A stretch of DNA of 64,000 nt from a virus. This document shows, piece by piece, positions 13,113 to 61,754 of this stretch. Numbering within the stretch: the stretch's first letter is position 1; each line of letters starts with the position of its first letter. Location of the stretch: positions 32,001 through 96,000 of IMG/VR virus record IMGVR_UViG_3300046616_000431. The stretch is one strand, 5' to 3'. A model generated the notes under the pieces. That model made no database searches, was not told the origin of the DNA, and saw nothing but the letters and a program-made list of their open reading frames with translations. A program made the translations under genes and the position numbers.

Positions 13113-13185
13113 CAGAAGCCCCCCGGGCCGCCAAGCACCGAAGGGCTTCTGGTTAGCGAGGGCCGCCAAGCACCTCGCCAAGTTC
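13113..13185 (-). ncRNA. Candidate small RNA with two UUGGCG-loop hairpins
   Basis: Hairpins 13113-13151 and 13156-13178; C/A oppositions on + become G-U pairs on -; TAGGTT -10-like box at 13192-13197 on -. Confidence 0.4.
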
Positions 13186-13208
13186 GAGTTCAACCTACCA
13201 GCGCGCTG

Positions 13209-13242
13209 CTGTCCACCGGTGCCATTCCGCCCCAAGGGGTGA
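13209..13242 (+). promoter_or_regulatory. Putative late promoter motif
   Basis: CTGTCC-N19-AAGGGGTGA upstream of sheath. Confidence 0.65.
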
Positions 13243-13268
13243 CAGCTGACCGACGACTGGTGGGTGGC

Positions 13269-14801
13269 ATGCCCGATATCTCTTCTGCGACGTATACGCC
13301 GCCCGGCGTCTACGTCAGCGACGAATCGACTCCGGCGGTCACCCCTCGCTCGGTGTCGACCTCTACGGTGACCATCATCGGCCCGGCTCTCGGGTACGAG
13401 ACATTTTCCGAGGTAGCGACGGTCTACTCGGCGTCGTCCACGGCGCTGAGCCAGCAGGGCATCTACGCCACTGCGGTCACGGGACCTCCGGCCATCGCCG
13501 CGCCGGTCGTGAAGAACATGGCCGGGGTCGCCATGGTCTACGGCGAGGACTACACGTTCGAGGTCGTGGCCGGGTCCGGTGGCGCCTCGACGGCCGTCAC
13601 GAAGATCAAGCGTCTGTCCGGGACCGTGGGCGACCTGACGGCGCCGTCCCCGAACGGCCTGGTCGACGGCGCGCAGGTGCGCATCACCTACGCCTTCACC
13701 TCGGCCTCGTACTACGAGCCGACGCTGCACGAGGACTACGACCAGATCGTGTCCATGTACGGTCCGGCCCTGGTGTCGACGGCCCCGTCCAGCCCGACGG
13801 CCTCCCAGGTCGCCTCGGCGCTGACCCTGGCGTCGAAGATCGCGCTGGAGAACGGCGCAGCCAACGTGCTGTGTGTGCCGACGAACCCGGCCGCCGGTGA
13901 CTACCGGGCGCAGCTGGCGGCGGCGTACGGGAAGCTGGAGGTCGACTACCGGGCGCAGATCCTGGTCCCGCTGTTCGTGGACGGCGCGTACGACACCAGC
14001 ACGGGCGCGAACATGGCGAACCTGCTGGCTGACGTGAAGAACCACTGTGAGACGGCGGCGGCCGACGGTTACGGCCGGATCGCCTTCACTGGCGCTCCGT
14101 CGAACTACGACAACTCCGTCGGCCATGACGCGCTGGCGATCCAGCAGGCGAGCAGGCGGCTGGTGCTGGCGTACCCGAACCGGATCCTGACCTTCAACTC
14201 GGCGGTGAATGCCTCGACCGAGGTCGACGGCTTCTACCTGGCCGCCGCCATGGCCGGTCGGATCGCGCGGAACCCGGTGGCTCGCGGCCTCACCCGGCAG
14301 TCGCTGACCTCGTTCACCGGCCTGCCCGCCACGGTGGCCCAGGCGATGACGAGGACGTTCCGCAACAACCTCTCGAAATCGGGCCTCAGCGTCGCCGAGA
14401 TCAACCAGGCGAACCAGCTGGTCGTCCGGCACGGCCTGTCCACGCAGATGACGTCGGTCCTGACCCAGGAGATCTCGCTGACCCGGGTCGGCGACACGCT
14501 CCTGCAGATGGTGCAGACCGGCATGGAGAACTCGGGCCTGATCGGCGAGCCGATCAACTCCGAGATGACCACGAACGTCAAGTCTGCGCTGCTGGGCCTG
14601 CTGGAGCAGGCGGTCAGCGACAGTGTCATCGTCTCGTACGCCAACGTCCTGGTGCGCCAGCAGTCGGCGGATCCCTCGGTGATCGAGGCGACCTTCAGCT
14701 ACAAGCCTGCGATCCCGATGAACTTTATCGTGGTCAAGTTCGCGGTGGACCTCACCACGGGCGACACCACGGCCCAGGAGCAGGACACGGCCACCCAGTA
14801 A
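13269..14801 (+). CDS. Tail sheath protein
   Basis: YTPPGVYVSDES N-terminus; YLAAAMAG; VVRHGLST...EIS; C-terminal FSYKPAIPMNFIVVKF. Confidence 0.92.
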   Translation: MPDISSATYTPPGVYVSDESTPAVTPRSVSTSTVTIIGPALGYETFSEVATVYSASSTALSQQGIYATAVTGPPAIAAPVVKNMAGVAMVYGEDYTFEVVAGSGGASTAVTKIKRLSGTVGDLTAPSPNGLVDGAQVRITYAFTSASYYEPTLHEDYDQIVSMYGPALVSTAPSSPTASQVASALTLASKIALENGAANVLCVPTNPAAGDYRAQLAAAYGKLEVDYRAQILVPLFVDGAYDTSTGANMANLLADVKNHCETAAADGYGRIAFTGAPSNYDNSVGHDALAIQQASRRLVLAYPNRILTFNSAVNASTEVDGFYLAAAMAGRIARNPVARGLTRQSLTSFTGLPATVAQAMTRTFRNNLSKSGLSVAEINQANQLVVRHGLSTQMTSVLTQEISLTRVGDTLLQMVQTGMENSGLIGEPINSEMTTNVKSALLGLLEQAVSDSVIVSYANVLVRQQSADPSVIEATFSYKPAIPMNFIVVKFAVDLTTGDTTAQEQDTATQ

Positions 14802-14844
14802 ACCTGGCGTGGCGGGCGCTGACGGGCCGCCTGCCGCGCTTTCG

Positions 14845-14878
14845 AGAGGACCCCGGGGTGAGGGCCCCGGGGTCCTCT
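14845..14878 (+). terminator. Hairpin between sheath and tube
   Basis: AGAGGACCCCGGGG/CCCCGGGGTCCTCT perfect stem. Confidence 0.6.
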
Positions 14879-14879
14879 G

Positions 14880-14914
14880 CTGTCCGCTGCCGTGCTGCCT
14901 GCCGTAGGGGGTGA
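14880..14914 (+). promoter_or_regulatory. Putative late promoter motif
   Basis: CTGTCC-N20-AGGGGGTGA upstream of tube. Confidence 0.65.
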
Positions 14915-14936
14915 GACCTACGGATGGGGTGGTGGC

Positions 14937-15440: not shown

Positions 15441-15444
15441 TCTG

Positions 15445-18580: not shown

Positions 18581-18583
18581 GCC

Positions 18584-19240: not shown

Positions 19241-19434
19241 TGGCTGCAGGCGAACGCGAGTGCATCATCAAGGTGCTGCGCCACATCGCGCCGAGCGAGC
19301 CCACCGGCCGTATCTGGGGACGCAAGCAGTCGGCCGACGGCGGGCAGGGACGAGAGGGCAACCTGTGGGCCGCCGACCCGGAGGACCTTGCCGACCTCAT
19401 CGTCGCCGAGCTGACCCGAGAGCGAGGGTGGTAA
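19240..19434 (+). CDS. Small hypothetical protein
   Basis: GGAGG RBS, GTG overlapping the previous stop. Confidence 0.45.
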   Translation: MAAGERECIIKVLRHIAPSEPTGRIWGRKQSADGGQGREGNLWAADPEDLADLIVAELTRERGW

Positions 19435-19917: not shown

Positions 19918-20580
19918 GTGGCCGACAGCCGCAAGGGGCTGAACTGCACCCTGTCCTACCCGGACGGCAAGACCAACCGGCAGTTCAGGGTGCGTGTCGA
20001 CTCTATCGGCCACGGCGTGACGATGGTGGCCGACGAGTCGAGCGCCCGTAACTCGCGCGCCTACTACCCGCACCGGGTGGCGCCGTCGCGCTTCTACCTG
20101 CGGGTGCTCCTGAAGGGGTACGCGGAGCGCCGGGCGTTCTCCAACTGGATGCAGGGCTACGCCGACCACGTGATGAACCCGGGCCTGGCCGTCGGCAAGA
20201 AGTTCCCCGACATGCGCGTCATGGTGCCGTCGAGGAACTTCGACCGCGAGGGCGTGCCGCTGACGGGGTTCGAGTGGGGTGACGCCATCGGCGCGATCCT
20301 GTGGACGCCGACGATCGTCTTCGAGACGACGGGTGAGCCCCAGGACACCGACTCCTGGACGACGAGCAGGTTCGTCAGCGCTGCGGACCCGGACCTGAAG
20401 TACTTCTGGCCCGCCGGTACGCAGCTCGGCGGCAACGCCGTGCCGTCGGGCAACTACAACAACGTCATCGACGGCTCCGACGGCGGCTCCGACGAGGGTC
20501 AGACCCTGGAGGACATCCCCGTGCATGCCCAGCCGAACGAGGGCACCAAGCCGAACGACCGGTACGACTACGGGAGCTAA
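19918..20580 (+). CDS. Baseplate protein
   Basis: AAGGAGG RBS; synteny between tube initiator and hub. Confidence 0.55.
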   Translation: MADSRKGLNCTLSYPDGKTNRQFRVRVDSIGHGVTMVADESSARNSRAYYPHRVAPSRFYLRVLLKGYAERRAFSNWMQGYADHVMNPGLAVGKKFPDMRVMVPSRNFDREGVPLTGFEWGDAIGAILWTPTIVFETTGEPQDTDSWTTSRFVSAADPDLKYFWPAGTQLGGNAVPSGNYNNVIDGSDGGSDEGQTLEDIPVHAQPNEGTKPNDRYDYGS

Positions 20581-20626
20581 CGCGCTGGCGTCCGCCTCCG
20601 CCAAGAGACTACGGACACCAGCGCGT
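20580..20626 (-). ncRNA. Long hairpin with UUGGCG loop (CGCCAA on +)
   Basis: ACGCGCTGG-c-GTCCG-c-CTC CGCCAA GAG-acta-CGGAC-a-CCAGCGCGT; C/A mismatches are G-U on the - strand. Confidence 0.4.
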
Positions 20627-20822: not shown

Positions 20823-20824
20823 AG

Positions 20825-24012: not shown

Positions 24013-24897
24013 TCAGCTCTTGAGCAAGCCTTCAGCCTCGGCCAGCCTCTGCTTCATCTCATCGACATACTCCTGAGCGGACTGCCGGTCGACCGTGACC
24101 AGCTCCTTGAGGAGCCCCAGGTCGATCTTTCCGGCGGCCCGAGCCTCCTTCAGGCGGACATCGACAGGGCGCGACTGGCGGGCGCCGATCGCCTTCGGCT
24201 CCTGCGCAGCGGCGGCACTGGCGTCCATTAGGCGGCGGAGATTCTTTACCGCCGAGACGGTCACCGGCCCTTCGGCTGCCAGCTCGTCGTACTTGGCCCG
24301 GAGGAGGTCGGGGTCATCCTTACCCAGGGCGTAGAGCTGCTCGACCACCAGCTGCGCCAGCGGAGTGGTCACTCGACTCCCCAGCGTCGAGTAGACAACG
24401 TAGTGCCGGATCGCGCGGTAGTAGACGTGCCGCTCGATGCCGATCGCCTTGGCGAACTTCTCAACGGACTTGTGGCCGCCCGCCGTGTAGCTGCCCTTCT
24501 TCTGAACCTCGGCGAACCAGCGGCCGGTGAGGATCCAGTAGTTGGTCTCGATCTGGGCGAACCCGTTCCCGGCCGCTTCGCCGACCTTGCGGATCTGGCG
24601 TTCCGCGTGAGCAAGGTGCTGCAAGTCGGAAGAGTCATCCGGCGCCTGGACGTACTCGAAGGGGTTCGAGGGCTCCGGGGAGTGGATGATCCCTTCGAGA
24701 GGCGCCGGGGCGACCTGGTGCGGCACCTCGACCTCGGCCGGGGCGCTCGCTGCAGCCTGGGCGGCCTCCGTCAGTGCGGGGTCGTCCTCCCCTCGCCGGG
24801 CGACCGGCTTGACGGCGGCCAGCGCAGCTGCACCCTTCGCCGCCCGCCTCTCGGCCGCCGTCTTCGGTCCCTGCTTGGTTCCTTCTCCGAGCCTCAC
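24013..24897 (-). CDS. ParA partner, putative centromere-binding protein
   Basis: GTG start overlaps the parA stop (GTGA); basic flexible N-terminus; HTH-like GHKSVEKFAKAIGIERHVYYRAI. Confidence 0.65.
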   Translation of the reverse strand: MRLGEGTKQGPKTAAERRAAKGAAALAAVKPVARRGEDDPALTEAAQAAASAPAEVEVPHQVAPAPLEGIIHSPEPSNPFEYVQAPDDSSDLQHLAHAERQIRKVGEAAGNGFAQIETNYWILTGRWFAEVQKKGSYTAGGHKSVEKFAKAIGIERHVYYRAIRHYVVYSTLGSRVTTPLAQLVVEQLYALGKDDPDLLRAKYDELAAEGPVTVSAVKNLRRLMDASAAAAQEPKAIGARQSRPVDVRLKEARAAGKIDLGLLKELVTVDRQSAQEYVDEMKQRLAEAEGLLKS

Positions 24898-25685
24898 GCG
24901 GCCTGCTCCTCTTCCTTGATGGCCTCGCGCAGTACGTGACGCACGAGGTGGCTGAACTCGTCGAGATCGGAGAGCGTGGGGGTCTCCTCCCAGGCTCGGG
25001 TGTAGTGCGTGCGGCCACTGACGTCGAAGTAGGGGTGCACGAACGGGACCGGGATGAAGTCCGGGTCGCGCTCGCTCAGGTCGGTCGCCAGGATGGCCCG
25101 CTGCTCTTCGGGGAGCGAGGTCGCGAACTTGCAGGCGACAAAGAAGTAGTGGACGCCGAGCCCGTTCTCGTTCAGCCGGGCCGCCCTGGCTGCGGTCTGC
25201 AGGGTGGCCTGGATGCGGACGGTCTCCCAGCCGGACGGGGCGCTCGGCATCAGGAGGAGATCCCCCTGAATGCAGAGATCGGTAAAGGCTTCCTTGTCGC
25301 CTCCGCCGAGGTCCACGAGGACGACGTCGTAGTCGGCCTTCAGCTCCTTGATGCGCTTCTCCAGCGTCGGCCCCTTCTGGTCGTTCACGTTGTGCTCGAC
25401 GAGGGCAAAGGGGACCTTCTCCCCGAGCGCATCGCGGATGGCGACCCAGGTGGCCAGGGTCTGGCTGTTGAAGTCGGTGTCGACGATGACGACTCGCATT
25501 CCGAGGGTCCGGGCGAACCACAGGGCGAGGTAGAGGGTCGAGGTCGACTTGCCGGTGCCGCCCTTGAGGACACCGATGCCGACGGCGAGACCTCCTCGGG
25601 ATCGGATCCAGTCCTTGATCTGGGCGACGGGCGCCATGAGCCTCTTCAGCTCTCGGTCGTCCCTGGGTTTGTGCTTGGGGTTCAT
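24894..25685 (-). CDS. parA: ParA family partition ATPase
   Basis: Deviant Walker A KGGTGKST; IVDTDFNSQ; YDVVLVD; AGGAG RBS. Confidence 0.92.
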   Translation of the reverse strand: MNPKHKPRDDRELKRLMAPVAQIKDWIRSRGGLAVGIGVLKGGTGKSTSTLYLALWFARTLGMRVVIVDTDFNSQTLATWVAIRDALGEKVPFALVEHNVNDQKGPTLEKRIKELKADYDVVLVDLGGGDKEAFTDLCIQGDLLLMPSAPSGWETVRIQATLQTAARAARLNENGLGVHYFFVACKFATSLPEEQRAILATDLSERDPDFIPVPFVHPYFDVSGRTHYTRAWEETPTLSDLDEFSHLVRHVLREAIKEEEQAA

Positions 25686-25755
25686 GTGCTCTCCTGATTG
25701 GCGGGCTGTGGGGGCCATCCTGCCGCAAGATCCCGCCTCTCAGGCGCACCCGGTC

Positions 25756-41300: not shown

Positions 41301-41609
41301 CTCGCTGGTCACACGCTCTTTGAATGCTTCAGGCACCGTGCTGAGGTCCACAGAATCCTGGAAGCCTATGAAGACAGCCCAGCCATCGCCCCACTTCCGT
41401 GCGATGGCGCACATGGGGTAGGGGTCCCGGGTCAGACCTCGGTACTTCAGGTTGTTGCGTACGCCTGGAAGGGCGGCCTGTGCCTCTGCTTTAGGCAGGC
41501 ACCGTGTGGCGGGAATCGGTCGCTGCATGGGCAGAACCGTAGGCGAGCGGAAACAGGCTGGCAAGGGCACGTATGGCCCCTGATCTGGGGAAACGGTCGT
41601 ACTGGAAGG

Positions 41610-43007
41610 TCAGGCGGCCTGGGCGAGCTGGTTCCTGCGGACCAACTCGTCGTAGCTGGGCTCCTCTTCGAGCCAGAGCAGCCTGCCGTCCGAGGCGATG
41701 ACCAGGTCGGAGATGATCTCGCCGGTCGCCGGGTCGATGACCTCGTTGCCCCACTGCCAGCGCTGGTCGACCTCGTCGCCACGGACGGGCGTCACGTCGG
41801 CCATACGGCGCTCCCGCAGGCGGGGGAGGGTGATCTCGTGCCAGATCAGCCGCTGGGCCTTGTGCAGCTCCAGGCGGCGCTGAGAGGTCCCCTCGGTGCC
41901 CACCTGGGCCGCCACCGCATCCCAGCCGTCCCAGGCCTCGGAGAGCGCCTCCTGGGCCGTCTCAGTGAGCGCCCAGAGGCTTCCGTCCCGGGTCACCAGG
42001 TCGTACTCAGCAAGGCGCTTCAGGTGGCGGTACGCGGTGGCGACGCTGAGCATGGCGCTCTCGGTCAGTTCGGCCGCCGTCTGCCTGTCGTTCCTGCTCA
42101 GGGCGGCCAGCAGCTTCAACGAGGAGGCGCCCAGACCCCGGTGGGCGAAGGCATCGAGGGACATCAGCCGAGAGATGACGGCACCGTCCAGGTCACCGTT
42201 TCTCAGGTTCGACACACTCGATTGCGCCCCCCCAGGCTGCGCCCCCATGGGGTTGTGTCGACGCTGAGAACGGTCTTCAAAAATCATCCACTGGGACCCC
42301 TTCTCACCCGAGCCGGACTCCATCAGCCGGACCCAGCCCTTGAGGCGCTGCGTGGTGGCGATGTAGGCGGTCCTGGCGGTGCACCCAGCGATCTCGGCGG
42401 CCTCGCGGTAGGAGAGCGTGTAGACGCGGCCCCCAGCGCGGTGGGCGGCCTTCCAGTGGGCCATCAGGACGCGGAGGTTGGTCGATCCGGCAGTGCCGCG
42501 CCAGGAGGCGCTGGTGATCCGGTCCCGCAGCTCGATGAGGTCGATGACGGCGTCCTGGCGGGAGCCGATGGCCACCCCGGACCCGACGCACTTGACCGCG
42601 CGCTGCCAGACCTTGTCGATGTACTTGTGGGCCGAGGGCATGCTCATGTTGCGGACGTGGTTGCCGCCGGTGGACGGCCAGTCGATGAGCGCCTCGGTGA
42701 ACTGGTCCCGGGTCCAGCGGTGCCGGACGGCAGCAGCAGCGACGGCTGCGGTGATCGCGTGGCCGTGCTTCGACTTCGCGGACTGGAGGCTGGAGGCGTC
42801 GGTCGAGCCGTAGCGGCTCTCGGTGTCGCCGTCGATCAACACGCCTGCCATACGCGGCGAGAGGGCCGGGAAGCGGTGCGACCAGTGGTTCGACTGCAGG
42901 TCACGCGGGGACGCGTCGCGCAAGGTCGCGGTTGCGGAAACGACACCGAGATTCAGGTCACTTTCGGCGTGCCGCACGGGCTGAGAGATACTAAAATGAG
43001 CAAGCAC
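41610..43007 (-). CDS. Putative plasmid-type replication initiator (helical bundle + two wHTH)
   Basis: LSYREAAEIAGCTARTAY and QTAAELTESAMLSVATAYRHLKRL wHTHs; internal IR element in the linker; flanked by long non-coding regions; start uncertain. Confidence 0.55.
   Translation of the reverse strand: MLAHFSISQPVRHAESDLNLGVVSATATLRDASPRDLQSNHWSHRFPALSPRMAGVLIDGDTESRYGSTDASSLQSAKSKHGHAITAAVAAAAVRHRWTRDQFTEALIDWPSTGGNHVRNMSMPSAHKYIDKVWQRAVKCVGSGVAIGSRQDAVIDLIELRDRITSASWRGTAGSTNLRVLMAHWKAAHRAGGRVYTLSYREAAEIAGCTARTAYIATTQRLKGWVRLMESGSGEKGSQWMIFEDRSQRRHNPMGAQPGGAQSSVSNLRNGDLDGAVISRLMSLDAFAHRGLGASSLKLLAALSRNDRQTAAELTESAMLSVATAYRHLKRLAEYDLVTRDGSLWALTETAQEALSEAWDGWDAVAAQVGTEGTSQRRLELHKAQRLIWHEITLPRLRERRMADVTPVRGDEVDQRWQWGNEVIDPATGEIISDLVIASDGRLLWLEEEPSYDELVRRNQLAQAA
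42200..42270 (-). repeat. Copy B of ~70-bp element, inside the rep-like CDS
   Basis: Encodes the interdomain linker SQRRHNPMGAQPGGAQSSVSNLR; inverted relative to copy A. Confidence 0.8.
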
Positions 43008-43290
43008 GGAGTGCTCGGCCCTTCTCTTTGGTCAGACGGAGAGGCCGGACCACCGTGAGGGCGATGGTCAGACCGCATAGGTCGCGTCGCCTGGCGGGAA
43101 CCCGTCCTGGCGGGTTGGGTTCCTTTTCCTGCTCGGCTTGCTTGGCGGCTTGACCGAGTGGATGAGACCTCCCAGGCGGAGGTCGAGCCTTACGTGAGGG
43201 GCGCGGGAACCTGTGGCGGGTTCCTAGCGCCCCTCCAGCTTTTCTACGTGCTGTCCATGATCGAAAGCTCCCTTGGCGGGGCCGGGCAGC
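43004..43290 (+). ncRNA. Candidate multi-hairpin countertranscript RNA with UGGCG loops
   Basis: GTGCCG-N17-TAAAAT promoter-like box at 42969-42997; five hairpins with GGC(G) loops; G-U pairs favour +. Confidence 0.45.
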
Positions 43291-43524
43291 GCGCTGACCG
43301 GCGAAGCGTGGTGGTGGGCCGAAGGTGGCGGGTACGGGCCCAGGGCACATTGAACATCATCAGACCCCGGTATGGGGAGTCAGGGTGCGATATAGCACTC
43401 CTGACGGCGTGTCGGCTGCCCGCCAGATCCGAACGACGAGTTCCGTGAGAACGCGGCCCTGCTTCGGTAGCGTGCGAAATCCGCCAAGATAACCCGCCAC
43501 GCGTTGCCTAGGGGCCCATCCGCC

Positions 43525-45615
43525 ATGTCTTCAGCCCTGCCTGGAACCTTCCTCTCCACCCAAGCCGTCCTCTCCCAAGCGCTGCCGAACTACCGCGAAC
43601 GACCGCAGCAGTTGAACCTCGCCCTCCACATCGAGCACACCTTCATGGACCGCCTGGAGGAGGAGATCGAGTCGGAGGGGGCCCCGCGCGTCCTCATGGC
43701 CGAGGCCGGGACCGGCACGGGCAAGTCGCTCGCCGCGATGATCCCGCTCATCCACGCCAGCCGCCGGGGCGGCCGGTACATCGTCGCCACCTCGACGATC
43801 GCCCTCATGAATCAGTACATTCGTACCGATTTGCCGATGCTGGAGCGCGAACTGGGCAAAGTGGGCGTCAACTTCACCTGGGCACCGCTCAAGGGAATTT
43901 CCAACTTTGCATGTGCCGTCAAGCTCGCCGAGGGCCCGGCCATCGCGAACCTCAAGCCCCTGCTCGACGAGCTGAACGCCACCGACGACGAAGGCCAGCT
44001 CACGCACACCGGCGACAAGGACGACATCCAGACGCCGATCGACCACCGCACCGAGTGGAAGCTCCTGTCGGCAGGCCAGGACGAGTGCCCCGGCCGCTCC
44101 AAGTGCGCCATGGCCGAGAGCTGCTTCGGCATGAAGCACAAGGACCAGGCCATGGAGGCGGGCATCGTCGTCACCAACACGGCCGTGCTCATGCTGGACA
44201 CCAAGCTCTACCGGCAGACCCGCCGGACCAGCGCGACCGGCGAGGGCATGCACATCCTGCTCGGCGACTACGACGGCCTGGTCGTGGACGAGGCGCACGA
44301 ACTGGAGTCGACCGCGACTTCGCACCTCGGCATCGACGTGAAGCAGGGCGGCCTGATCCGCTACACGGACCAGGTCGTGAACTTCATCAACACCCACAGC
44401 GAAGACGACGCCGGAGCGCAGCTCCAGCAGGACAAGATCCTCGCGCACCTCGCTGACGTCGGCGACGGCATCCTGGAGGTACTGGGCAAGGAGGAGCGGG
44501 CCACCCTCGGCACCGACTTCATCGTCGAGAACTTCTCCTCGTTCGAGTCGCTCTTCGTCGAGCTGATGGACCTGATCGCCAAGCTGCGCAAGACCAAGAT
44601 CGACCGAGGGGACGCCGAGCGGTACGAGGACGTCAAGGCGCGGCTCAGCACCCAGGGGAGCAACTACCTCGCCCACCTCAAGGAGATCCTGCTGGCCGAG
44701 CCGGACAAGGTCGTGCGCTGGGCCGAGACCTACGGCGACCGCCGCCGCGAGGGAGGCCCGCGCTGGGCCATCAAGACCGCGCCCATCGAGGTCGGCGACT
44801 ACCTCCGCGAAGAGCTGTGGAGCCGGGTGCCCTCGGTCCTGATGTCCGCCACCCTCAGCGCCGGAGTCGGCCGGTCCCGCTTCGACTACATCCAGCGCTC
44901 CCTCGGCCTGCAGGGCGCCGAGATCCTCGACGTCGGCACCCCCTTCGACTACCCCAACCAGGCCCTGCTGTTCGTCCCGGAGTCCAGCGTGCCGTCCCCG
45001 AGCCCCAACACCCGGGGCGCCTGGGAGACCTGGGTCCGCGAGGCCACCTTCAAGCTGGTGCAGATGGCCGGAGGCGGAGCCATGCTGCTCTACACCTCCC
45101 GCAAGGCCATGGATGACGCCTACGACGCGCTGTGGCCGCGCCTGCAGGACATCGGCTGCCAGAGCTTCCTGCAGGGCAGCGACCTCACGAACAAGGAGAT
45201 CGCAGCCCGCTTCCGCGACGACGAGGACAGCGTCCTGTTCGGCCTGCGCAGCTTCATGACGGGCATGGACTTCCCCGGCCGGACGAACCGGCTGGTCGTC
45301 GTGGACAAGCTGCCCTTCGCCGTGCCGACGGACCCGATCCACATGGCCCGAGAGGACGCCATCCGCAACCGCGACGGCAACCCCTTCATCGACCTGGCCA
45401 TCCCCACCATGACCCTCACGCTGGAGCAGGCCTTCGGCCGCCTGATCCGCAGCACCGACGACCGGGGTGTCGTCGCGATCATGGACTCGCGCCTCTCCTC
45501 GACCTGGTGGGGCCAGAAGATCCAGGCGGCGCTGCCGCCCGCGCGGCGCACCACGGCCTTCGCCGACGTGGAGGACTTCTACGCCCAGGACTCCGCGCTG
45601 GAACTCGCCTCCTGA
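43525..45615 (+). CDS. dinG: DinG/YoaA family helicase
   Basis: ERPQQ Q-motif, EAGTGTGKS, Fe-S Cys, VVDEAH, MSATL, DKLPF, QAFGRLIR. Confidence 0.93.
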   Translation: MSSALPGTFLSTQAVLSQALPNYRERPQQLNLALHIEHTFMDRLEEEIESEGAPRVLMAEAGTGTGKSLAAMIPLIHASRRGGRYIVATSTIALMNQYIRTDLPMLERELGKVGVNFTWAPLKGISNFACAVKLAEGPAIANLKPLLDELNATDDEGQLTHTGDKDDIQTPIDHRTEWKLLSAGQDECPGRSKCAMAESCFGMKHKDQAMEAGIVVTNTAVLMLDTKLYRQTRRTSATGEGMHILLGDYDGLVVDEAHELESTATSHLGIDVKQGGLIRYTDQVVNFINTHSEDDAGAQLQQDKILAHLADVGDGILEVLGKEERATLGTDFIVENFSSFESLFVELMDLIAKLRKTKIDRGDAERYEDVKARLSTQGSNYLAHLKEILLAEPDKVVRWAETYGDRRREGGPRWAIKTAPIEVGDYLREELWSRVPSVLMSATLSAGVGRSRFDYIQRSLGLQGAEILDVGTPFDYPNQALLFVPESSVPSPSPNTRGAWETWVREATFKLVQMAGGGAMLLYTSRKAMDDAYDALWPRLQDIGCQSFLQGSDLTNKEIAARFRDDEDSVLFGLRSFMTGMDFPGRTNRLVVVDKLPFAVPTDPIHMAREDAIRNRDGNPFIDLAIPTMTLTLEQAFGRLIRSTDDRGVVAIMDSRLSSTWWGQKIQAALPPARRTTAFADVEDFYAQDSALELAS

Positions 45616-45650: not shown

Positions 45651-45698
45651 AATTCCACGCCAAGATAGACCGCCTTAAATCGCACCAGGAGCATCAAC

Positions 45699-47931: not shown

Positions 47932-48019
47932 CAAGGTGCCTCCCCGCCAAGAGGCCGAATCCCACGGCAGACAGCACTGATTTGCCGTGCCCAGCCACCG
48001 CCAGGTTGGAGCTATCAAC

Positions 48020-48722: not shown

Positions 48723-48769
48723 TCCACCCTGCCCGGCCGCCAACGGGCCCTCATCAAGGACCGCCAACC

Positions 48770-49606
48770 TTGAAACCGCCACCCAAGCCTGACGCCTGCA
48801 TGCCGCTGTCCAACCCGGACTTCGAGCGCCTGAAGGCCACCTACCCGAAGCTCTGGGTCGATCCGAAGCGCGAGTGCAAGACCTGCCTGAAGCAGAACGG
48901 CAACACCTACCGCTGGTGGGCCGACAGCACCCGCACCGAGATCGCCACCTACGAGTGCGACTGCACCGCCCAGTGGCTGATGCACCTCTGGTTCCTCAAC
49001 GCGGGCATCGGCCTCAACTACCAGCGGCTCACCTGGGACGACGTCTCCGCCGTGGGCCCGGACATCGTTGCGCAGATCGGCGACTACGCCCTGAACGCGG
49101 CCCGCCGCGTCTCCGACGGCCGCAACCTCGTCCTGTGGTCGACCGGCCCCGGCACCGGCAAGACGCTGCTGCTCACGCTGCTGCTCAAGACGCTCATGGT
49201 GCAGGGCTACCAGGTCCACTTCAGCCAGTTCAACGAGATCATCGACCTCTTCACCAACTCCTGGCGCGACAAGGCCGAGCGCGAGCAGTGGACCCGCCGC
49301 GTACGCAACGTCGACGCCCTCGGCATGGACGACATGGGCAAGGAGCACAAGGGCCGCCTGGAGATGGTCGAGGCCATGGTCGACCAGATCGTCCGCGCCC
49401 GCGTCTCCGACTCCCGGCCCATGGCCATCACCTCCAACTTCACCCCCCAGCAGATGCAGGAGGGGTACGGCGGCTACGTCATGAGCCTGCTCAGCGAGCA
49501 GGCCGACTTCATCGAGGTCACCGGTAGCGACTTCCGGCCCCGCCGCCGCGAACTGACCGCCCAGGAGGCCGCCCTCGGCCTCGCCCGACCGATTGCAGCG
49601 GTGTGA
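48770..49606 (+). CDS. DnaC/IstB-like helicase loader
   Basis: CKTC...CDC Zn motif; GPGTGKT; MDDMGKE; ITSN; AAGGA RBS + TTG. Confidence 0.88.
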   Translation: MKPPPKPDACMPLSNPDFERLKATYPKLWVDPKRECKTCLKQNGNTYRWWADSTRTEIATYECDCTAQWLMHLWFLNAGIGLNYQRLTWDDVSAVGPDIVAQIGDYALNAARRVSDGRNLVLWSTGPGTGKTLLLTLLLKTLMVQGYQVHFSQFNEIIDLFTNSWRDKAEREQWTRRVRNVDALGMDDMGKEHKGRLEMVEAMVDQIVRARVSDSRPMAITSNFTPQQMQEGYGGYVMSLLSEQADFIEVTGSDFRPRRRELTAQEAALGLARPIAAV

Positions 49607-54254: not shown

Positions 54255-54256
54255 GC

Positions 54257-55009
54257 GTGGCCGACCAGCCGCCTCTCCAGCTCGTCGGCCGCCCGGACAC
54301 CGCCATCGTGTCCACGAGTACCGCTCTGGTGCCCGTACGGGCGGCCGTGGTGTGTCACGACGTCAACGGCTACTACCGGGCCCTCGGCGTGGCGCCGGAC
54401 GCCACCAGGCGCGAGCTGCTGGCCGCCTACACCGCCCGCAACGGGCAGGGCGACGCCCGGCTCACGTACGTCTTCCACCAGCTCCTGAACGCCGACACAC
54501 GGGCCCGCTACGACGCCTCGCCCCTCGGCCAGCCCTTCCAGGACCGGTACGTACACGCCGAACTCCTGCGCCGCGCCAGCCTGTTCGCCTCCGCACAGAA
54601 CGCTCTCCACGGCACCCAGAACACGGCTGCCGACATTCTTAAATCTCACGGACTGGGGTCCGAAGAACCGAAGAACGAATTTCTTGATTCCACCTCCCCA
54701 GGACGCTTTAGTGATGACGGGAAGAGGGACCGCCAACCCTCTCCCAGCTCCCCGGCCACCCGGCCGTACTCCTACCTGCTCCTGGCCTCCACCTGCGACG
54801 ACGTGTCGCGGATGGACCAGTGGAGGGAAGGACTCGGCAGGGCCCTGGCGGCCCGGAACTGCCCGCGATTCGCGGTCGGATTCCACGGCATTCCAGGACA
54901 GCCGTTCTTCGTGGCGAAAGACCTCGGGACCCCCGTGTTCTTTCTCCACGAAGACCAGCCCGTGACGGGGGAGTTGATCGCGGCAGCCGCCACTGCCGCA
55001 GTCGGATAA
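54257..55009 (+). CDS. J-domain-like protein lacking HPD
   Basis: YYRALGVAPDAT..EL..AY ... LLNADTRARYD. Confidence 0.7.
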   Translation: MADQPPLQLVGRPDTAIVSTSTALVPVRAAVVCHDVNGYYRALGVAPDATRRELLAAYTARNGQGDARLTYVFHQLLNADTRARYDASPLGQPFQDRYVHAELLRRASLFASAQNALHGTQNTAADILKSHGLGSEEPKNEFLDSTSPGRFSDDGKRDRQPSPSSPATRPYSYLLLASTCDDVSRMDQWREGLGRALAARNCPRFAVGFHGIPGQPFFVAKDLGTPVFFLHEDQPVTGELIAAAATAAVG

Positions 55010-55045
55010 CCGACATCACCCGCCATCAGAACATCAGGAGCATTC

Positions 55046-56026
55046 GTGACCGCCAACACGAGCCCCGTCGTAGCCTTCCGCAAGGGCGGCAGCGCCGCCG
55101 AAGAGGCCGAGAAGGAGTCCAACGCCAGCGGCGGTCGCCGCGACAAGTCCCCGGACTACTTCTCCCTCAAGGAAGACCAGGCCTCCACCGTCATCCGTCT
55201 CCTGACGGACCACGACGACTGGATCTACGTCGAGCAGCACTCGTTTGTGCCGACCAAGGCCGCCCCCAAGGGTGTCGAGAAGTGGCCCAAGGCCATGACC
55301 TCCGTCTGCCGCAAGGACCCGGCCTTCGATGGCCACTACGGGGACTGCTACATCTGCGACAACAAGGTCAAGAACTCCTTCGGGAAGGTCGCCTCCTCCC
55401 GCATCCGCGTCTGGGCCCTGGCGGTCGAGCGCGAGCTGGTGCGCGGCGACGGCAGCGAGGCCCTCGGCGGCCCCGCGAAGAAGGGCGTCGTCATCGGCGT
55501 CCGGGACAAGGTCGACGAGGTCGACGAGCTGAACGCCGAGGGCAAGACCACCGGCAACAAGCTGAACTACCCGCGCCTCCTGGTGATCAACCAGCCCATG
55601 AAGGGCTTCTTCGCCAATCTCAAGGCGCTGCACGGCCTCTACGGCACCGTCTGTGACCGGGACTTCTCGATCACCCGCGACGGCACGGGCACGGACACGA
55701 ACTACAAGATCGTGCCCATCGACCCGATCCCCGACCTCAAGCCCGGCACCCCGGCCTGGGAGCTGTACACCCAGTCCGTCGCCGAGCGCCAGGTCGTCCT
55801 CGGCTCGATCGTCGCCGAGAAGGCCAGCGACGAGTACTACGGCCGCTTCTTTGACCCCTCCAAGGAAGTCGACAAGGACGGCAACGTCACCGACGTTGCA
55901 GCGGCGGCCACCGGCGCCGTCGCCGTGGGAGGCGTGATGAACCTCCCGAGTGCCACCGCGACTGACGCGGGCCTCTCGGCCGACATGCGAGACAAGATCC
56001 GCAACCTCGGCGCTCCGACCGGCTGA
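55046..56026 (+). CDS. Putative single-stranded DNA-binding protein (gp32-like)
   Basis: YFSLK...IRLL..H...C....CYIC; RDFSITRDGTGTDTNY; adjacent to polymerase. Confidence 0.65.
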   Translation: MTANTSPVVAFRKGGSAAEEAEKESNASGGRRDKSPDYFSLKEDQASTVIRLLTDHDDWIYVEQHSFVPTKAAPKGVEKWPKAMTSVCRKDPAFDGHYGDCYICDNKVKNSFGKVASSRIRVWALAVERELVRGDGSEALGGPAKKGVVIGVRDKVDEVDELNAEGKTTGNKLNYPRLLVINQPMKGFFANLKALHGLYGTVCDRDFSITRDGTGTDTNYKIVPIDPIPDLKPGTPAWELYTQSVAERQVVLGSIVAEKASDEYYGRFFDPSKEVDKDGNVTDVAAAATGAVAVGGVMNLPSATATDAGLSADMRDKIRNLGAPTG

Positions 56027-56155
56027 TCCAGCCAGGTCCCCAACACCCGGTCCGTCCCGGTGCCGTCAGATGCGGCGCTCAGCGATCACGTCGCTGCGTT
56101 CTTCCCCGGGGCGGACTGGTTCCATCACCCTCTTCATGCGCGAGGACCCACCACC

Positions 56156-59100: not shown

Positions 59101-59959
59101 CGTCGACCCGGCCGAGTACGCCATCCGCTACGGCCTCGACTCCGTCAAGGGCGTGGGCGAGGCGGCCGTCGGCGACATAACGCCGCACCAGCCGTACAGC
59201 CACTGGGACGACTTCCAGGAGCGCAAGGGCAGCAAGGCCCACGCGGGAGTCGTCGCCCTCCTCGCCCGCATCGGCGCCTTCGACGACCTCGTGCCCAACC
59301 GGCGCGGCCTGGAGGCCAAGCTGCTGGCCGCCAAGACCGGCGAGGACGCCCGCTGCGTCTTCAAGGACGAGTCTCACGACTGGATGGAGCGGGTCACCGA
59401 GACGTTCGAGCAGCGCGACGGCGAGATGCACCGCCTCCCGCAGCCGACCTTCTGCACCTTCGACTGGTCCACCGAGCCGGTCCCGGTGAACAAGCGCACC
59501 GGCAAGAAGCTCAAGCGCAAGCCGCTCCCCAAGCGCTGCACCAAGGCCTGCCGCCAGTACGTCCCCCGGCCCGCCATGGACCTCGACGACGTCGAGCCGT
59601 ACACCGACGAGGACATCCGCCAGATCGAGCTGGAGATGCTCGGCTGCTTCCTCTCCAGCACACCGTTCGACCGGCTCGACCCGGACGACCGCCAGGCGTG
59701 CCTGCACAACGCCACGGCCATCGCCGACGGCCCGAACGGCAACTACATCGTCGCCGCCATCATCGCCAGCGCCCGCCCCCACCGCTCCATCCCCATGGGG
59801 TTCGTCTCCCTGGAAACCGAGGCCGCCACCCTCAGCGCGGCCGTGTTCCAGGACGCCTGGGCCGTCGAGAAGCACCGCCTGAACAAGGGCCAGCTCTGCT
59901 TCGCCGAAGTCCGCAAGACCGACCGGGGTCTCAACCTCGTCGCCTACCAGCCCGTCTGA
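56156..59959 (+). CDS. dnaE: DNA polymerase III alpha subunit
   Basis: FVHLHTHSEYS PHP, GPGRGSGGGSLVAY, PDFDVDF, HAAGVVI, KFDIL, YGFNKSHA; GAGG RBS before GTG 56156. Confidence 0.97.
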   Translation: MLRLVTSYASERFPGTEYRVGGAKLHLPALVEHEEDGTRWLLVPAAAPVIVPPLTWRRALSDGAAGVMEVLEDGVTAVPAHMIEEQDINGGRVCLAYSRNAIFDDEDGIPTYHEVLDQLEAKLSPPTTAAGFVHLHTHSEYSPLDGLSRLDEIVTEVTGHGQTAVGITDHGNCAGHPALQRAADAAGIKPIFGIEANLTDDRLMRGDTIPEDDPRFHGHTTTDDEGNEKPIPPARMLQNHYWHLCLYAENNDGLRNIWAASTEGFRDGFYGRPRMDWDTLARHSEGVIASTGCLRGPVARAILAEDTELARQRLTRLMDIFPGRLYVELQPNDMHDQRWVNTQMIVLAKEFGLPLLATVDSHFPTEEDAHAHQVWIACQTQKDVQDEADLFAEDLGLFLKDEASVRAGFSYLVEEVVDEAIANTVVLADRCNARIEGGQVTPSFTGDPAEDVRRLRELCLANWNRLPASAQDQPAGAYRIYRERFEREMDLLVTKGFCGYYLMVADYVGWAKENGILVGPGRGSGGGSLVAYLARITSLDPIRHDLLFERFLTMGRKGLPDFDVDFPASKKAAILGYLRQRWGTDRVVTIGSEGRLKNKAVLDNLLRAMKSRLPEGAEADLKQVKELIKEVEAGTAGLGMSWEDLWVQHGDQLQPYADRYPELFEMAEKFVGRLKSYGRHAAGVVISTSVPIAEWMPMRAIEGEEQMVTQWAMDDVEAIGGIKFDILTLGTLDIIQQCIDLVHERYGIRIDLEAWDKEFEDPDVWDEFTHALTLGIFQVDTPSGTRLCERMRPVNVAELADMITIVRPGPKNSGLTDAYLRRRAGEQAVSYPDPRLERVLAPTYGAMIYQEQVMAVTRIIAGYDESEADAVRKILGKKKVAAIESAGQEFLSRADMPQADAARLWAQMAEFSKYGFNKSHAYAYAFLAYWTAFLKVNYRREFLVAAMTHVENERLPEFVREARRVNVSVQPPHINLSGHGFSVDPAEYAIRYGLDSVKGVGEAAVGDITPHQPYSHWDDFQERKGSKAHAGVVALLARIGAFDDLVPNRRGLEAKLLAAKTGEDARCVFKDESHDWMERVTETFEQRDGEMHRLPQPTFCTFDWSTEPVPVNKRTGKKLKRKPLPKRCTKACRQYVPRPAMDLDDVEPYTDEDIRQIELEMLGCFLSSTPFDRLDPDDRQACLHNATAIADGPNGNYIVAAIIASARPHRSIPMGFVSLETEAATLSAAVFQDAWAVEKHRLNKGQLCFAEVRKTDRGLNLVAYQPV

Positions 59960-59974
59960 CCAGAAAGGCCCACC

Positions 59975-60427
59975 ATGCTCCGCGACCTGGGCACCGGCGC
60001 CCGCTTCTTCCTCTACGTGGTGATCGGCATGATCGCCGTCGCCGTCTTTGCCTTCCTGTCGATCTACGTCTTCGGCTCGGTCCAGAACACGACCGCCGAC
60101 TACCGGGGCCGGACCGACGCCCGCGAGCGCACCGTCGCCGACGGCGCCTTCCGCATCGGCACCTACGAGCAGTTCTTCGACCTCTGCCAGTCCGTGCAGA
60201 CCTCCGAGGCCGCCATCAGGAACGCCCAGAAGGAGCTGGACACCGACCCGGCGGCCGACCGCAAGGCACAGCTGCAGCAGGTCATCACGGCACAGAGCAA
60301 CATCCGCGCCGAGTCCATCACGACCTACAACTCCAAGGCCTCCCAGGAGCACCGCCAGGCGTTCCTGGACGCCGCTCTCCCCGCCCGCCTCGACCTGAAC
60401 ACCCAGGAGACCCAGTGCGCCGCCTGA
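59975..60427 (+). CDS. Membrane-anchored protein
   Basis: N-terminal TM helix; GAAAGG RBS. Confidence 0.7.
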   Translation: MLRDLGTGARFFLYVVIGMIAVAVFAFLSIYVFGSVQNTTADYRGRTDARERTVADGAFRIGTYEQFFDLCQSVQTSEAAIRNAQKELDTDPAADRKAQLQQVITAQSNIRAESITTYNSKASQEHRQAFLDAALPARLDLNTQETQCAA

Positions 60428-61008
60428 CCACCACCCTCGCCGCTACCGCTGCCGTCCTCGGCCTCGCCTTCGGCGCCACCGCCTGCGACATGGGCGGCGA
60501 CAGCCAGCCCTCCTCGCGAGCCAAGGAGAACAAGAGCCGCAACAGCAGCTACGACGGCCTCGTCGCCAAGCAGCCCGCCGAGAAGGTCGACTACAGCCCC
60601 ACCCGGGCGACCAAGAACTTCTGGATCAAGACCTGGGGCAAGACCCCGAACAAGCTGTCGTACGTCTACATCCAGAACGCCAACGGCCAGTACGGCTACT
60701 ACATCCTCAAGGGCCTGCCCGTCACCTACTGCGTCAGCCTCGTGCCGCCGGAGCAGGCCTCCCGGCTCGACCTCGGCTCCGACGGCAGCACGGGCGTCGT
60801 CGTCCAGGCCCCCTCCATGGACGGCACCTACAGCAGCCAGTCCAACTGCACCTCCTACTACGGCGAGGACGCGACCAGCGGCGCCTACGTCGAGTGGAGC
60901 GTCGGCGCGAACCAGTCGTACTTCCTCTACTCCGAGCCGATGAGCCTGCCGCAGTTCAAGGACGCCGTCCCGCTCGGCAAGACCCAGCTCTCCGACGTCA
61001 AGCACTGA
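60415..61008 (+). CDS. Lipoprotein
   Basis: AGGAG RBS, GTG; signal peptide ending in lipobox ATAC. Confidence 0.75.
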   Translation: MRRLTTTLAATAAVLGLAFGATACDMGGDSQPSSRAKENKSRNSSYDGLVAKQPAEKVDYSPTRATKNFWIKTWGKTPNKLSYVYIQNANGQYGYYILKGLPVTYCVSLVPPEQASRLDLGSDGSTGVVVQAPSMDGTYSSQSNCTSYYGEDATSGAYVEWSVGANQSYFLYSEPMSLPQFKDAVPLGKTQLSDVKH

Positions 61009-61014
61009 CCCACC

Positions 61015-61047
61015 GGCGGGGGCCGACACGACGGTCGGCCCCCGCCT
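61015..61047 (+). terminator. Terminator-like hairpin
   Basis: GGCGGGGGCCGAC/GTCGGCCCCCGCC perfect stem. Confidence 0.65.
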
Positions 61048-61066
61048 CCTGAACGGAGCCCCTCCC

Positions 61067-61687
61067 ATGTCCAACGTCATCGACAGCATCAGCCACCCGT
61101 ACTGGGCCAACCTCGGCAACGCGGTCCGCGAGAGCCGCACCAAGCAGCGCTACTCCCAGCAGTCTGTCGCCGGTGCGGTCGGCCTTTCCGTCCGGGACCT
61201 GGCCGCCCTGGAGTCGGGGTTCGTGCCGCCGGAGGTCGCGGTCACCCTCGGCCGCGTCCGCCTGACTGCCTTCGACGAGATGCTGGGCTGGGAGGAGGGC
61301 ACCGCCCGCGAGTACGTCACCGAGGCGGTCTCGGCGGTCAGCGTCCCCGAAGGCTTCACGTTCAGCACCAACGTCGTCGAGCCCCGCAACAGCCTGGACC
61401 GCTCTACCTACTCCCGCGCCGACTGGGTCCGCCTCGGCAAGGCCGTCCAGGTCGCCCGCATGGCGCAGCGCATGACCAAGCCCGTCCTGGCCTTCGCTGT
61501 CCAGTCCACCAGCAAGACCATGCTCCGCCTCGAAGAGGGGCGCATCTACGGCGACCCGCGTACCGCGCCGCCCGGCGACTACAACTCCGAGAAGTACTGG
61601 TTCAAGCGCCTCGCGCTGCTGGAGATGGCCCTGGAGTGGGAAGCGGGCCAGGCCCGCCAGATCCTCGACAACACCGCCACCAAGTAG
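61067..61687 (+). CDS. Tandem XRE-HTH transcriptional regulator
   Basis: Internal duplication W..LG.AV...R ... LE.G ... L.WE.G.AR. Confidence 0.8.
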   Translation: MSNVIDSISHPYWANLGNAVRESRTKQRYSQQSVAGAVGLSVRDLAALESGFVPPEVAVTLGRVRLTAFDEMLGWEEGTAREYVTEAVSAVSVPEGFTFSTNVVEPRNSLDRSTYSRADWVRLGKAVQVARMAQRMTKPVLAFAVQSTSKTMLRLEEGRIYGDPRTAPPGDYNSEKYWFKRLALLEMALEWEAGQARQILDNTATK

Positions 61688-61754
61688 CACCTGCAGCACC
61701 ACCGGCCGACCGCCAACGGCCGCGTACCGCCTCCTACCGCCAGGGAGACCCCTC

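Follow-up and report, generated by a model that had tools for sequence, protein, structure and literature searches.

A loop-displayed CCGCCA tag in the leaders of a Streptomyces phage-plasmid family and a candidate partner RNA

Intergenic hairpins that have unrelated stems but present one and the same loop raise the question of what reads that loop, and whether it is read as DNA or as RNA. Such hairpins are found in the window analysed here, a 64,000-nucleotide stretch of DNA that comprises bases 32001-96000 of the 112,362-bp virus record IMGVR_UViG_3300046616_000431, which has a GC content of 68.3% (positions below are those of the window unless they are said to be of the record). The record is a fragment with a completeness of ~72% (CheckV-type estimate), and the element from which it derives is, judging from its relatives, a member of a family of roughly 150-kb Streptomyces phage-plasmids, since these comprise Streptomyces contigs of ~150-157 kb as well as a complete plasmid, pRLB1-9.1, from Streptomyces sp. 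cg35. The common loop holds the word CCGCCA, often extended to CCGCCAA, which is a sense-strand tag, real and specific to the element rather than to the host. The reading preferred here, with a probability of roughly 0.5, is that a trans-acting small RNA pairs with the tagged leaders and controls their translation.

A sense-strand tag near gene starts

The abundance of the tag was assessed in an unbiased k-mer test, in which intergenic DNA (~8.6 kb) from the full 112,362-bp record was compared with 300 dinucleotide shuffles. CCGCCA is the top intergenic 6-mer (34 copies versus 6.05 expected, z 11; its reverse complement occurs 10 times) and CCGCCAA the top intergenic 7-mer (17 versus 1.2, z 14), which confirms the striking intergenic density of CGCCAA reported in the original prediction. 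When intergenic segments are oriented by gene direction, CCGCCA is found 44 times in sense (9.2 expected) and seven times in antisense (3.3 expected), and in pRLB1-9.1 it is likewise the top sense intergenic 6-mer (71 versus 15.1). A 400-kb sample of the host chromosome carrying pRLB1-9.1 has no such enrichment, either in sense (38 versus 33.8) or in antisense (40 versus 36.8), and the share of its copies located in tight loops, defined as a stem of at least 5 bp with at most 2 nt on either side of the word, is at background (4.7%). Altogether the element holds ~240 copies of CCGCCA, and the host ~1.5 per kb. The window-wide strand asymmetry of CGCCAA, 47 versus 7, is mostly codon usage. The coding copies of CCGCCA match the expectation from synonymous shuffles both in the phage (134 versus 126) and in pRLB1-9.1 (161 versus 164), and it is therefore the context, and not the hexamer alone, that matters.

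This context is the start of genes. The 3' end of the tag mostly lies between 5 nt inside a gene and 40 nt upstream of its start, which is the case for 31 of the 112 called genes here and 49 of the 159 in pRLB1-9.1, while the antisense word has no pile-up near start codons. Thus ~30% of the element's genes carry a tag in the leader or the translation-initiation region, among them a rep-like gene, parA, replisome genes, recA, thyX and some virion genes. The copies often come in twos or threes, ~20-27 nt apart. They are usually located upstream of the Shine-Dalgarno sequence, although a few follow it and precede the start codon or overlap that codon, and often the Shine-Dalgarno forms the 3' arm of the tight hairpin or the start codon lies inside the hairpin. 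Other tag hairpins directly follow the stop codon of the upstream gene, many of them 0-50 nt 3' of it.

The ten hairpins listed in the original prediction, as well as those at 43097-43282, are all present and fold at -4.4 to -27.8 kcal/mol (z -1.3 to -4.6), the weakest being that at 43470-43502. The loops of tag hairpins comprise 6-8 nt and read (N)CCGCCA(A). CCGCCA is also the commonest 6-mer in intergenic tight loops, which hold 11 of its 34 intergenic copies, as compared to 5.3% of intergenic positions overall (p 9e-7) and to 10% for copies in coding sequence. In a non-circular flank permutation, where the 5' flank of each site is paired with the 3' flank of another site, real stems are seen at 12 of 51 sites in the phage (1.98 in the permutations) and at 18 of 85 in pRLB1-9.1 (2.68), and none of 2000 permutations reaches the observed value, so that the loop enrichment proposed originally holds against control sequence. 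Partition-function folding gives the intergenic sense copies unpaired probabilities of 0.69 and 0.67, as compared to 0.40-0.44 for control intergenic positions (p 2e-8 for 0.69 versus 0.40), 0.54 and 0.42 for the hexamer in coding RNA, and 0.37-0.42, which is background, for antisense copies. Tight hairpins account for only ~1/4 of the sites, the remainder being located in larger loops or in unstructured leader, and counts of G.U versus A.C within single hairpins are 5 versus 7.

Comparison with relatives shows that the loop is retained in orthologous hairpins, the stems of which differ by compensatory substitutions or by G.U pairs of the sense strand. In all close relatives examined (DnaB 77-95% identical), CCGCCA ranks first among the 6-mers in loops. 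The recA leader stem, CGGCCG here, is replaced in relatives by CAGCTGA/TCAGCTG (two compensatory pairs), and their leader contains an extra hairpin, GCCAA-CCGCCA-TTGGC; the third tag site of recA is lost in one lineage, indicating site turnover. Similarly, the stem at record position 100092 is GACGTG/CACGTC here and GGCGCG/CGCGTC in a relative, that at record position 101459 is TAAATCCGG/CTGGATTTA versus AATCTGG/CCAGATT, and the stem of the first hairpin before the gene of the DnaC/IstB-like loader varies between CCGGGC and CTGGGC in relatives, the latter with a sense-strand G.U pair. Orthologues of the hairpin at 47938-47955 read GCCTC-ACCGCCAG-GAGGC and GCCTCG-ACCGCCA-CGAGGC, the hairpin at 47991-48009 is identical in relatives, and all three sites at 54980-55062 are kept in one relative contig and in pRLB1-9.1. 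The tag extends to a distant clade (DnaB 42% identical), where a hairpin GGTCCG/ACCCGCCA/CGGACC, aligned to the loader leader, is found ~25 nt upstream of an AAGGAG Shine-Dalgarno and ATG, where CCGCCAGGAGG also precedes start codons, and where the 60-nt leaders of a complete member (G006) hold 32 copies of CCGCCA versus 7.1 expected. Conservation of the loop together with covariation of the stem, which the original prediction had sought in related elements, is thus found in the recA, loader, 100092 and 101459 hairpins. Its proposal that recognition takes place at the RNA level is supported by the sense orientation of the tag, its single-strandedness, the covarying stems, the adjacency to ribosome-binding sites and the specificity for the element and not the host.

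A conserved candidate RNA holding the complement of the tag

A candidate partner is located outside the window, in the gap that follows a terminase-like gene at positions 106167-106409 of the record (Table 1). On its coding strand this gap contains TCTTGGCGGGT, and within the otherwise diverged sequence TGGCGGG (UGGCGGG in RNA), which holds the exact complement of the CCGCCA tag, is invariant and is presented by a local hairpin at its apex. Also retained are a 5' block, TGGCACGATG, which is invariant too, and a covarying closing helix. A total of 26 related loci were collected for the region, and the structure statistics are drawn from 12 relatives. RNAalifold finds 35 pairs, and 16 of these show compensatory changes (5.1 in shuffled alignments, with 0 of 500 shuffles reaching 16, and 2-5 in slid controls), while 95.7% of cells pair on this structure versus 86.9% when shuffled, the structure tested being derived from the same alignment as the statistics. 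G.U cells number 25 and A.C cells three, and the fold is therefore assigned to the coding strand. The RNA of the distant clade is compact and consists of a 5-bp hairpin with the loop UCUGGCGG, followed by a strong GC terminator-like hairpin; the stems GGATC/GATCT, GGATC/GATTC and CGATC/GATCG are found there, with G.U pairs on the coding strand. The RNA is also present in pRLB1-9.1, at ~110,170-110,360 of the plasmid (L048:10170-10360), where it reads CCCTGGCGGGTT, and tag and RNA co-occur in both clades. At E up to 10, Rfam returned chance-level matches only for the region, and none to C4 or any other family. No anti-tag was found in the post-capsid gap of the record. In a 159,746-bp relative with terminal repeats (G007) two exact copies of a 15-nt anti-tag, GATCTCTGGCGGGAT, are seen at 14344-14358 (plus strand) and 43661-43675 (minus strand).

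The flanks of the invariant core in the RNA partly co-vary with lineage-specific extensions of the tag, as judged from the sequences compared, a match that a protein reader would not predict. In the present record the RNA reads UCUUGGCGG, which matches a leader consensus extended to CCGCCAAGA; among the leaders CCGCCAA is found 19 times (1.8 expected), CGCCAAG 14 times (2.0) and GCCAAGA seven times (0.61), and the 9-mer CCGCCAAGA itself occurs five times in the window (0.77 expected), four of these being intergenic. In pRLB1-9.1 the RNA reads UGGCGGGU, and the leaders are extended on the other side, to ACCCGCCA (ACCCGCC 33 versus 4.7). A further relative, G005, has the anti-tag region GAUCUCUGGCAGGAU / GAUCUCUGGCAG; here leader CCGCCA is at background (3 versus 3.1) and CTGCCA occurs seven times (2.5 expected), while GCCAGA, CCAGAG, CAGAGA, AGAGAT and GAGATC, which tile the exact complement GCCAGAGAUC, each occur 14-16 times versus ~4, all of these being small numbers from rough gene calls and to that extent a weak point of the argument.

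Based on these observations, the preferred reading may be outlined as follows. The tag would be kept single-stranded in the 5' leaders, often in a 6-8-nt loop on a freely varying stem, and would be read by one small structured RNA, encoded by the element in the gap described above, via its invariant UGGCGGG. Loop-to-loop or loop-to-leader pairing would then change ribosome access, and perhaps mRNA stability, across the whole tagged gene set at once, the rep-like message with its six leader tags being the most heavily targeted. More tentatively, a single phage-plasmid RNA may act as a master switch that retunes translation of the tagged third of the genes and couples plasmid maintenance to the lytic cycle, with tag and RNA co-evolving between lineages (CCGCCAAGA/UCUUGGCGG, ACCCGCCA/UGGCGGGU, GCCAGAGAUC/GAUCUCUGGC). 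With regard to the original prediction, which in one of its two versions had multi-loop antisense RNAs acting in trans from 43.0-43.3 kb, the idea of antisense action in trans gains support from the conserved RNA with its UGGCGGG, while the location proposed is not supported.

Several observations weigh against pairing of this kind. A 6-nt seed has thousands of copies in host mRNAs, so that extra specificity is needed, perhaps provided by structure. Some late genes, for example the sheath gene, are tagged as well, and a simple early-gene shut-off therefore does not fit all sites. No homologue of Hfq, ProQ/FinO or CsrA was found by Pfam in the record or in the complete relatives, and promoter and terminator scans at the RNA region found no consensus promoter or terminator. 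Minimum-energy folds partly pair the anti-tag (UCU with GGA) and leave a 4-nt loop. Complementarity beyond the 6-nt core is only partial: the L055-type RNA, GUCUGGCGGGAU, agrees with the leaders at position +7 (G) only, and position -1 in this lineage is mostly A where C is expected. Finally, a tag copy on the opposite strand would co-vary with the leaders likewise, and the argument from the flanks therefore rests on the strand call by G.U pairs.

Direct pairing of the tag with 16S rRNA was also considered and rejected. The only TGGCGG of the 16S rRNA is at nt 35-40, which we take to be the buried helix 3 region and where pairing is therefore unlikely, and no complementarity exists at the 3' tail.

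The rep-like leader and the other tagged genes

The gene with most tags in its leader encodes a protein with two winged helices, rep-like or a regulator, and homologues of it are encoded on the 150-157 kb Streptomyces contigs. Its AlphaFold model has a pLDDT of 76, and as a fold search gave only MarR-like local matches, neither a Rep nor an RNA-binding role can be assigned. The gene reads leftward and shares its upstream gap with a rightward gene for a DinG-like helicase. It is within this gap that the original prediction placed hairpins with a "complementary" GGC(G) loop (43097-43282), but these loops are the sense CCGCCA of the minus-strand gene 41610-43007, an arrangement kept in six relatives: in the same gap there, TGGCGG is found 3-6 times on the side of the leftward gene, and CCGCCA 1-3 times immediately ahead of the helicase gene, one copy overlapping the ATG.

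The array at 43092-43331 might instead form a multi-loop plus-strand antisense RNA that kisses leaders in trans, or a countertranscript of the rep-like gene. Several of the six plus-strand TGGCGG copies are located at hairpin apices, the gap as a whole has a slightly more stable fold on its plus strand than on its minus strand (-244.6 versus -221.2 kcal/mol), and one plus-strand terminator-like hairpin with a T-run is present at 43099-43126 (the T-run following 43099-43116). This alternative nevertheless appears improbable. The orientation rule alone suffices to explain the array, as minus-strand genes such as parA carry sense tags as well, and TGGCGG is always beside the leftward gene and CCGCCA beside the rightward gene in the six relatives. 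In addition, two invariant U.G pairs in the best-conserved hairpin within the gap (43043-43074) can form on the minus strand only (pairs 333-360 and 341-352 of alignment A6, U.G in seven of seven sequences), the T-run is absent in relatives, and no sigma-70-type promoter was found. Because of the conserved orientation switch, the minus-only U.G pairs and the unconserved T-run, the array is read as the heavily tagged ~330-nt leader of the rep-like gene and not as an antisense RNA. The 14-nt block GATGATGTTCAATG that bounds it is a candidate for the leftward promoter or the 5' end of the transcript. The tag nearest to the rep-like start (43092-43110, minus strand) is followed by GGCG in a conserved block, CCCGCCAGGCGACG. 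In the RNAalifold model this GGCG pairs with CGCC in the leader's first tag, which may represent a long-range pairing or a pseudoknot, as in repZ control.

The tagged features are collected in Table 1. The unstructured leader tags of the original prediction are present at thyX, at parA and at 55020, while the 45699 leader contains the variant ACGCCAAGATAG and the label SSB for the gene at 55046-56026 stays unconfirmed, as Pfam gives no match at E 0.01. Three sites, at 43481-43495, 45659-45673 and on the minus strand of record positions 106325-106339, have the longer word CGCCAAGATA(G)ACC in common, the third site being the reverse reading of the anti-tag region of the conserved RNA. At the loader gene, the second hairpin (48754-48773) has an AAGGA Shine-Dalgarno in its 5' arm and a conserved TTG (48770) in its 3' arm; this TTG, and not ATG 48800, is most likely the start, to judge from the alignment, because the ATG is ATC in a relative while the frame from TTG is kept (M-K/R-P...). 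The start of the DinG-like helicase gene is likewise uncertain, TTG 43504 being given by the list of open reading frames (ORFs) and ATG 43525 by comparison with a relative.

Table 1. Tagged leaders, neighbouring genes and the candidate RNA (window positions unless stated otherwise)
Feature	Position	Strand	Context
Unstructured CCGCCAAGA tag	9801-9809	+	21 nt upstream of thyX start (9830)
thyX gene	9830-10549	+	Pfam Thy1, E 4.7e-49
CCGCCA tag	11028-11033	+	in 39-nt gap before gene 11043-11738
Two hairpins, 13113-13151 and 13156-13178, both presenting GCCGCCAAGCA	13113-13178	+	just upstream of tail-sheath-like gene 13239-14801; -22.7 kcal/mol (z -4.4) and -12.1 kcal/mol (z -3.1); CCGCCA in apical loop
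Long hairpin, CCGCCAAGA in apical region	20580-20626	+	at stop codon of gene 19918-20580; -27.8 kcal/mol, z -4.6
CCGCCAA tag	25699-25705	-	13 nt upstream of parA start, beside Shine-Dalgarno; ParA/MipZ Pfam matches for 24894-25718
CCGCCA copy	41507-41512	-	just downstream of winged-helix gene stop
Gene of 465-aa protein with two winged helices (rep-like or regulator)	41610-43007	-	Pfam wHTH matches at residues 291-352
Invariant hairpin in leftward leader	43043-43074	-	two U.G pairs on minus strand only
Six CCGCCA tags (plus-strand TGGCGG at 43092, 43108, 43143, 43214, 43274, 43326)	43092-43331	-	~330-nt leader; several in hairpin apices
Conserved 14-nt block GATGATGTTCAATG (minus-strand reading)	43348-43361	-	bounds tag array; near-invariant in seven aligned sequences
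Four CCGCCA copies (43420, 43481, 43494, 43520)	43420-43525	+	start region of DinG-like helicase gene
CGCCAAGAT variant (ACGCCAAGATAG)	45659-45667	+	leader of gene 45699; a relative has CCGCCAAGA at this place
Hairpin GCCTC / CCCGCCAA / GAGGC	47938-47955	+	after 5'-3' exonuclease gene
Hairpin CCAGCC / ACCGCCA / GGTTGG	47991-48009	+	start of gene 47987/48020-48457; G.U pair on plus strand only
Tandem hairpins and third CCGCCA at 48776	48731-48781	+	before DnaC/IstB-like loader
Hairpin GCGGCAG / CCGCCA / CTGCCGC (54980-54999), unstructured CCGCCA at 55020, hairpin 55043-55062	54980-55062	+	GTG start of gene 55046 in 5' arm of last hairpin
Two hairpins, CGGCCG / ACCGCCAA / CGGCCG and CTCC / TACCGCCAG / GGAG	61703-61747	+	RecA leader; Shine-Dalgarno in 3' arm of hairpin 61731-61747
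Conserved structured RNA	record 106167-106409 (L054:10167-10409), outside window	+	243-nt gap after 740-aa terminase-like gene

The window encodes a virion module with a contractile tail (the sheath-like gene at 13239 gives a weak match to Pfam Phage_sheath_1), ThyX and ParA (both by Pfam), and a full replication module comprising the DinG-like helicase, a 5'-3' exonuclease, the DnaC/IstB-like loader, DnaB, WhiB, primase, Pol III alpha, a helix-turn-helix (HTH) protein and RecA. For most of the element's proteins Pfam gives no family. Record positions 100125-100511 (L054:4125-4511) encode a 128-aa protein that matches sigma-70 region 4 (E 3e-5), and two tag sites precede its gene. No tRNA was found in the window, nor any Rfam match at the gathering score, with chance-level rows only (E up to 10) for 43-49 kb. 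The stretch has no DNA match in the phage database, where the best protein match of Pol III alpha is 31% identical. Relatives were recovered with the RecA, DnaB and terminase-like gene as queries, while the helicase and winged-helix queries found none in viral or metagenome contigs. The stretch is present in rhizosphere and soil metagenome DNA runs, and no RNA run is among the runs listed.

Apart from the tag, other sense intergenic words are over-represented in the whole record, GGGGTGA / CAAGGGGTGA (14 versus 1.1) and TGCTGTC (9 versus 0.8), the latter being found in the distant clade directly after the terminator-like hairpin of the conserved RNA, and GTACGCTAG is over-represented between the genes of pRLB1-9.1 (TACGCTA 10 versus 0.2). 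These are candidate promoter or terminator words.

Other readers of the tag, and known systems

The tag could instead be the operator of an element-encoded, sequence-specific RNA-binding protein exerting CsrA- or T4 RegA-like translation control, in which case the six-site rep-like leader may be autoregulatory or a sponge, and the conserved RNA unrelated or an anti-tag decoy. The cis evidence (single-stranded sites, loops on covarying stems, proximity to the ribosome-binding site, clusters of 2-3 sites) fits such a protein equally well, a strict 6-nt core with variable flanks resembles a protein site, and the anti-tag is partly paired in minimum-energy folds. As most proteins of the element have no Pfam family, a binder of a new kind is conceivable. 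However, no candidate was found: Pfam gives no CsrA, Hfq or ProQ homologue in the record or in complete relatives, the nucleic-acid-binding domains detected are only of the HTH, winged-helix, sigma region 4 and WhiB types, and a protein leaves unexplained both the presence of one syntenic structured RNA with the exact complement per lineage and the fact that the flank preferences of the leaders follow this RNA. A protein reader is regarded as less likely than a small RNA, but as a serious rival.

Far less probable still is recognition of the tag as DNA, either as an oriented repressor site resembling the stoperators of L5 or as a promoter element for the sigma-region-4-like protein described above. 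Like stoperators the tag is asymmetric, intergenic and held in one orientation relative to transcription, but a core of 6-7 bp is too short for a specific duplex site when the element has ~240 copies and the host ~1.5 per kb, and it is not avoided inside genes. Unrelated inverted repeats, compensatory stems and sense-strand G.U pairs would make no sense for duplex recognition, which is unlikely for all these reasons, and the broad distance to the start and the Shine-Dalgarno directly after the tag are unlike a -35 or -10 element. Similarly, there is very little to be said for a processing or stability signal, that is an endoribonuclease site between genes or a mark of protective 3' hairpins. 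Many hairpins do lie 0-50 nt after an upstream stop codon, and the long ones at 13113 and 20580 resemble 3'-end or terminator structures, yet several sites per leader are unnecessary for a cut, the hexamer is not avoided in coding RNA, many sites are unstructured and abut the Shine-Dalgarno, and the complementary RNA would be left without explanation.

If a small RNA is the reader, the closest mechanistic precedents are found among plasmids and temperate phages. The loop letters UUGGCG and CGCCAA are identical to those of the ColIb-P9 Inc RNA/repZ pair, and a GC-rich loop-loop pairing of 6-7 nt would be shared, in the model, with this system and with R1 CopA/CopT. The anti-tag also has a YUNR-type start (UUGG or CUGG), although minimum-energy folds leave it a 4-nt loop, and a replication-type gene would be among the targets, as in the replication-initiator control of IncI/IncB/IncFII, with six tags in the leader of the winged-helix gene, the Rep function of which is putative. 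However, plasmid antisense RNAs such as Inc RNA and CopA are encoded opposite a single target leader of one replicon gene and are fully complementary to it, whereas the candidate RNA is located >30 kb away from the majority of the tagged leaders, has 6-10 nt in common with these and would have ~30-70 targets per element. Membership in the IncFII/IncI/IncB-type antisense systems, with which the network was first compared, therefore fails, because the RNA at 106167-106409 is not encoded opposite its targets, which are dispersed over 112 kb. C4 of P1/P7, CI of P4 and CA of N15 are small structured immunity RNAs of phages able to live as plasmids, and act by short loop complementarity on one or two sites of one operon. 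The RNA proposed here would likewise be a small structured phage-plasmid RNA acting on the phage's own messages, but its targets are dispersed over the whole genome, and Rfam gives no match to C4.

Among systems read by proteins, CsrA/RsmA-CsrB has in common with the tag a short core in loops on unrelated stems and several sites per leader with the last at the Shine-Dalgarno, and the six sites of the rep-like leader recall CsrB as one RNA region with many sites. The motif, however, is CCGCCA and not GGA, the multi-site region is an mRNA leader and not a dedicated small RNA, and the CsrA family (PF02599) has no match in the record or in two complete relatives. The dual hairpins read by ANTAR proteins are tandem hexaloops with A at position 1 and G at position 4, whereas the strict hexaloop CCGCCA has C at both positions, many sites are single or unstructured, and Rfam gives no match. 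L5 stoperators are 13-bp asymmetric duplex sites bound by the phage repressor, unlike the 6-7-nt core found here, with its ~134 coding copies as predicted by codon usage, its unpaired or hairpin context and its sense-strand G.U pairs. To our knowledge Actinobacteria lack Hfq, ProQ and CsrA, and we are aware of very little on post-transcriptional control in Streptomyces and its phages. The tag is a dense, conserved and statistically clear RNA signal on ~30% of the genes of a widespread ~150-kb phage-plasmid family, for which a concrete candidate partner RNA exists. If the pairing model is true, a virus-wide small-RNA regulon with a short loop tag as its address would be seen here for the first time, and with it a compact means of co-regulating numerous genes in high-GC hosts; with a protein as the reader, the tag would define the operator of a new RNA-binding regulator.

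A literature search found no published description of the CCGCCA tag system. The closest published analogue in kind is the start-associated sequences (SAS, and the associated ESAS) of Cluster K mycobacteriophages described by Pope et al. 2011 (PMC3203893), the role of which was still untested in 2025 (PMC12699233). Each is a short asymmetric word that recurs in many copies and one orientation immediately before the start codons of some of the phage genes, is absent from the host, and is maintained throughout a phage cluster even where the genes that follow it are different; for the tag this is seen in the 44 sense versus seven antisense copies, the ~30% of genes that carry it and the host sample at expectation. 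SAS is a 13-bp word that contains the Shine-Dalgarno (AGGAG), is spaced 3-7 bp from the start codon and occurs in the non-structural half of the genome only, and the authors found no RNA-pairing support in ESAS (PMC3203893). In contrast, the tag has a core of 6-7 nt without the Shine-Dalgarno, its 3' end mostly lies between 40 nt upstream of the start and 5 nt inside the gene, covarying hairpins present it in their loops, and a conserved candidate RNA holds its complement. Should pairing of the tag with this RNA prove true, it would offer a testable explanation for the long-unexplained start-associated sequences of actinophages.

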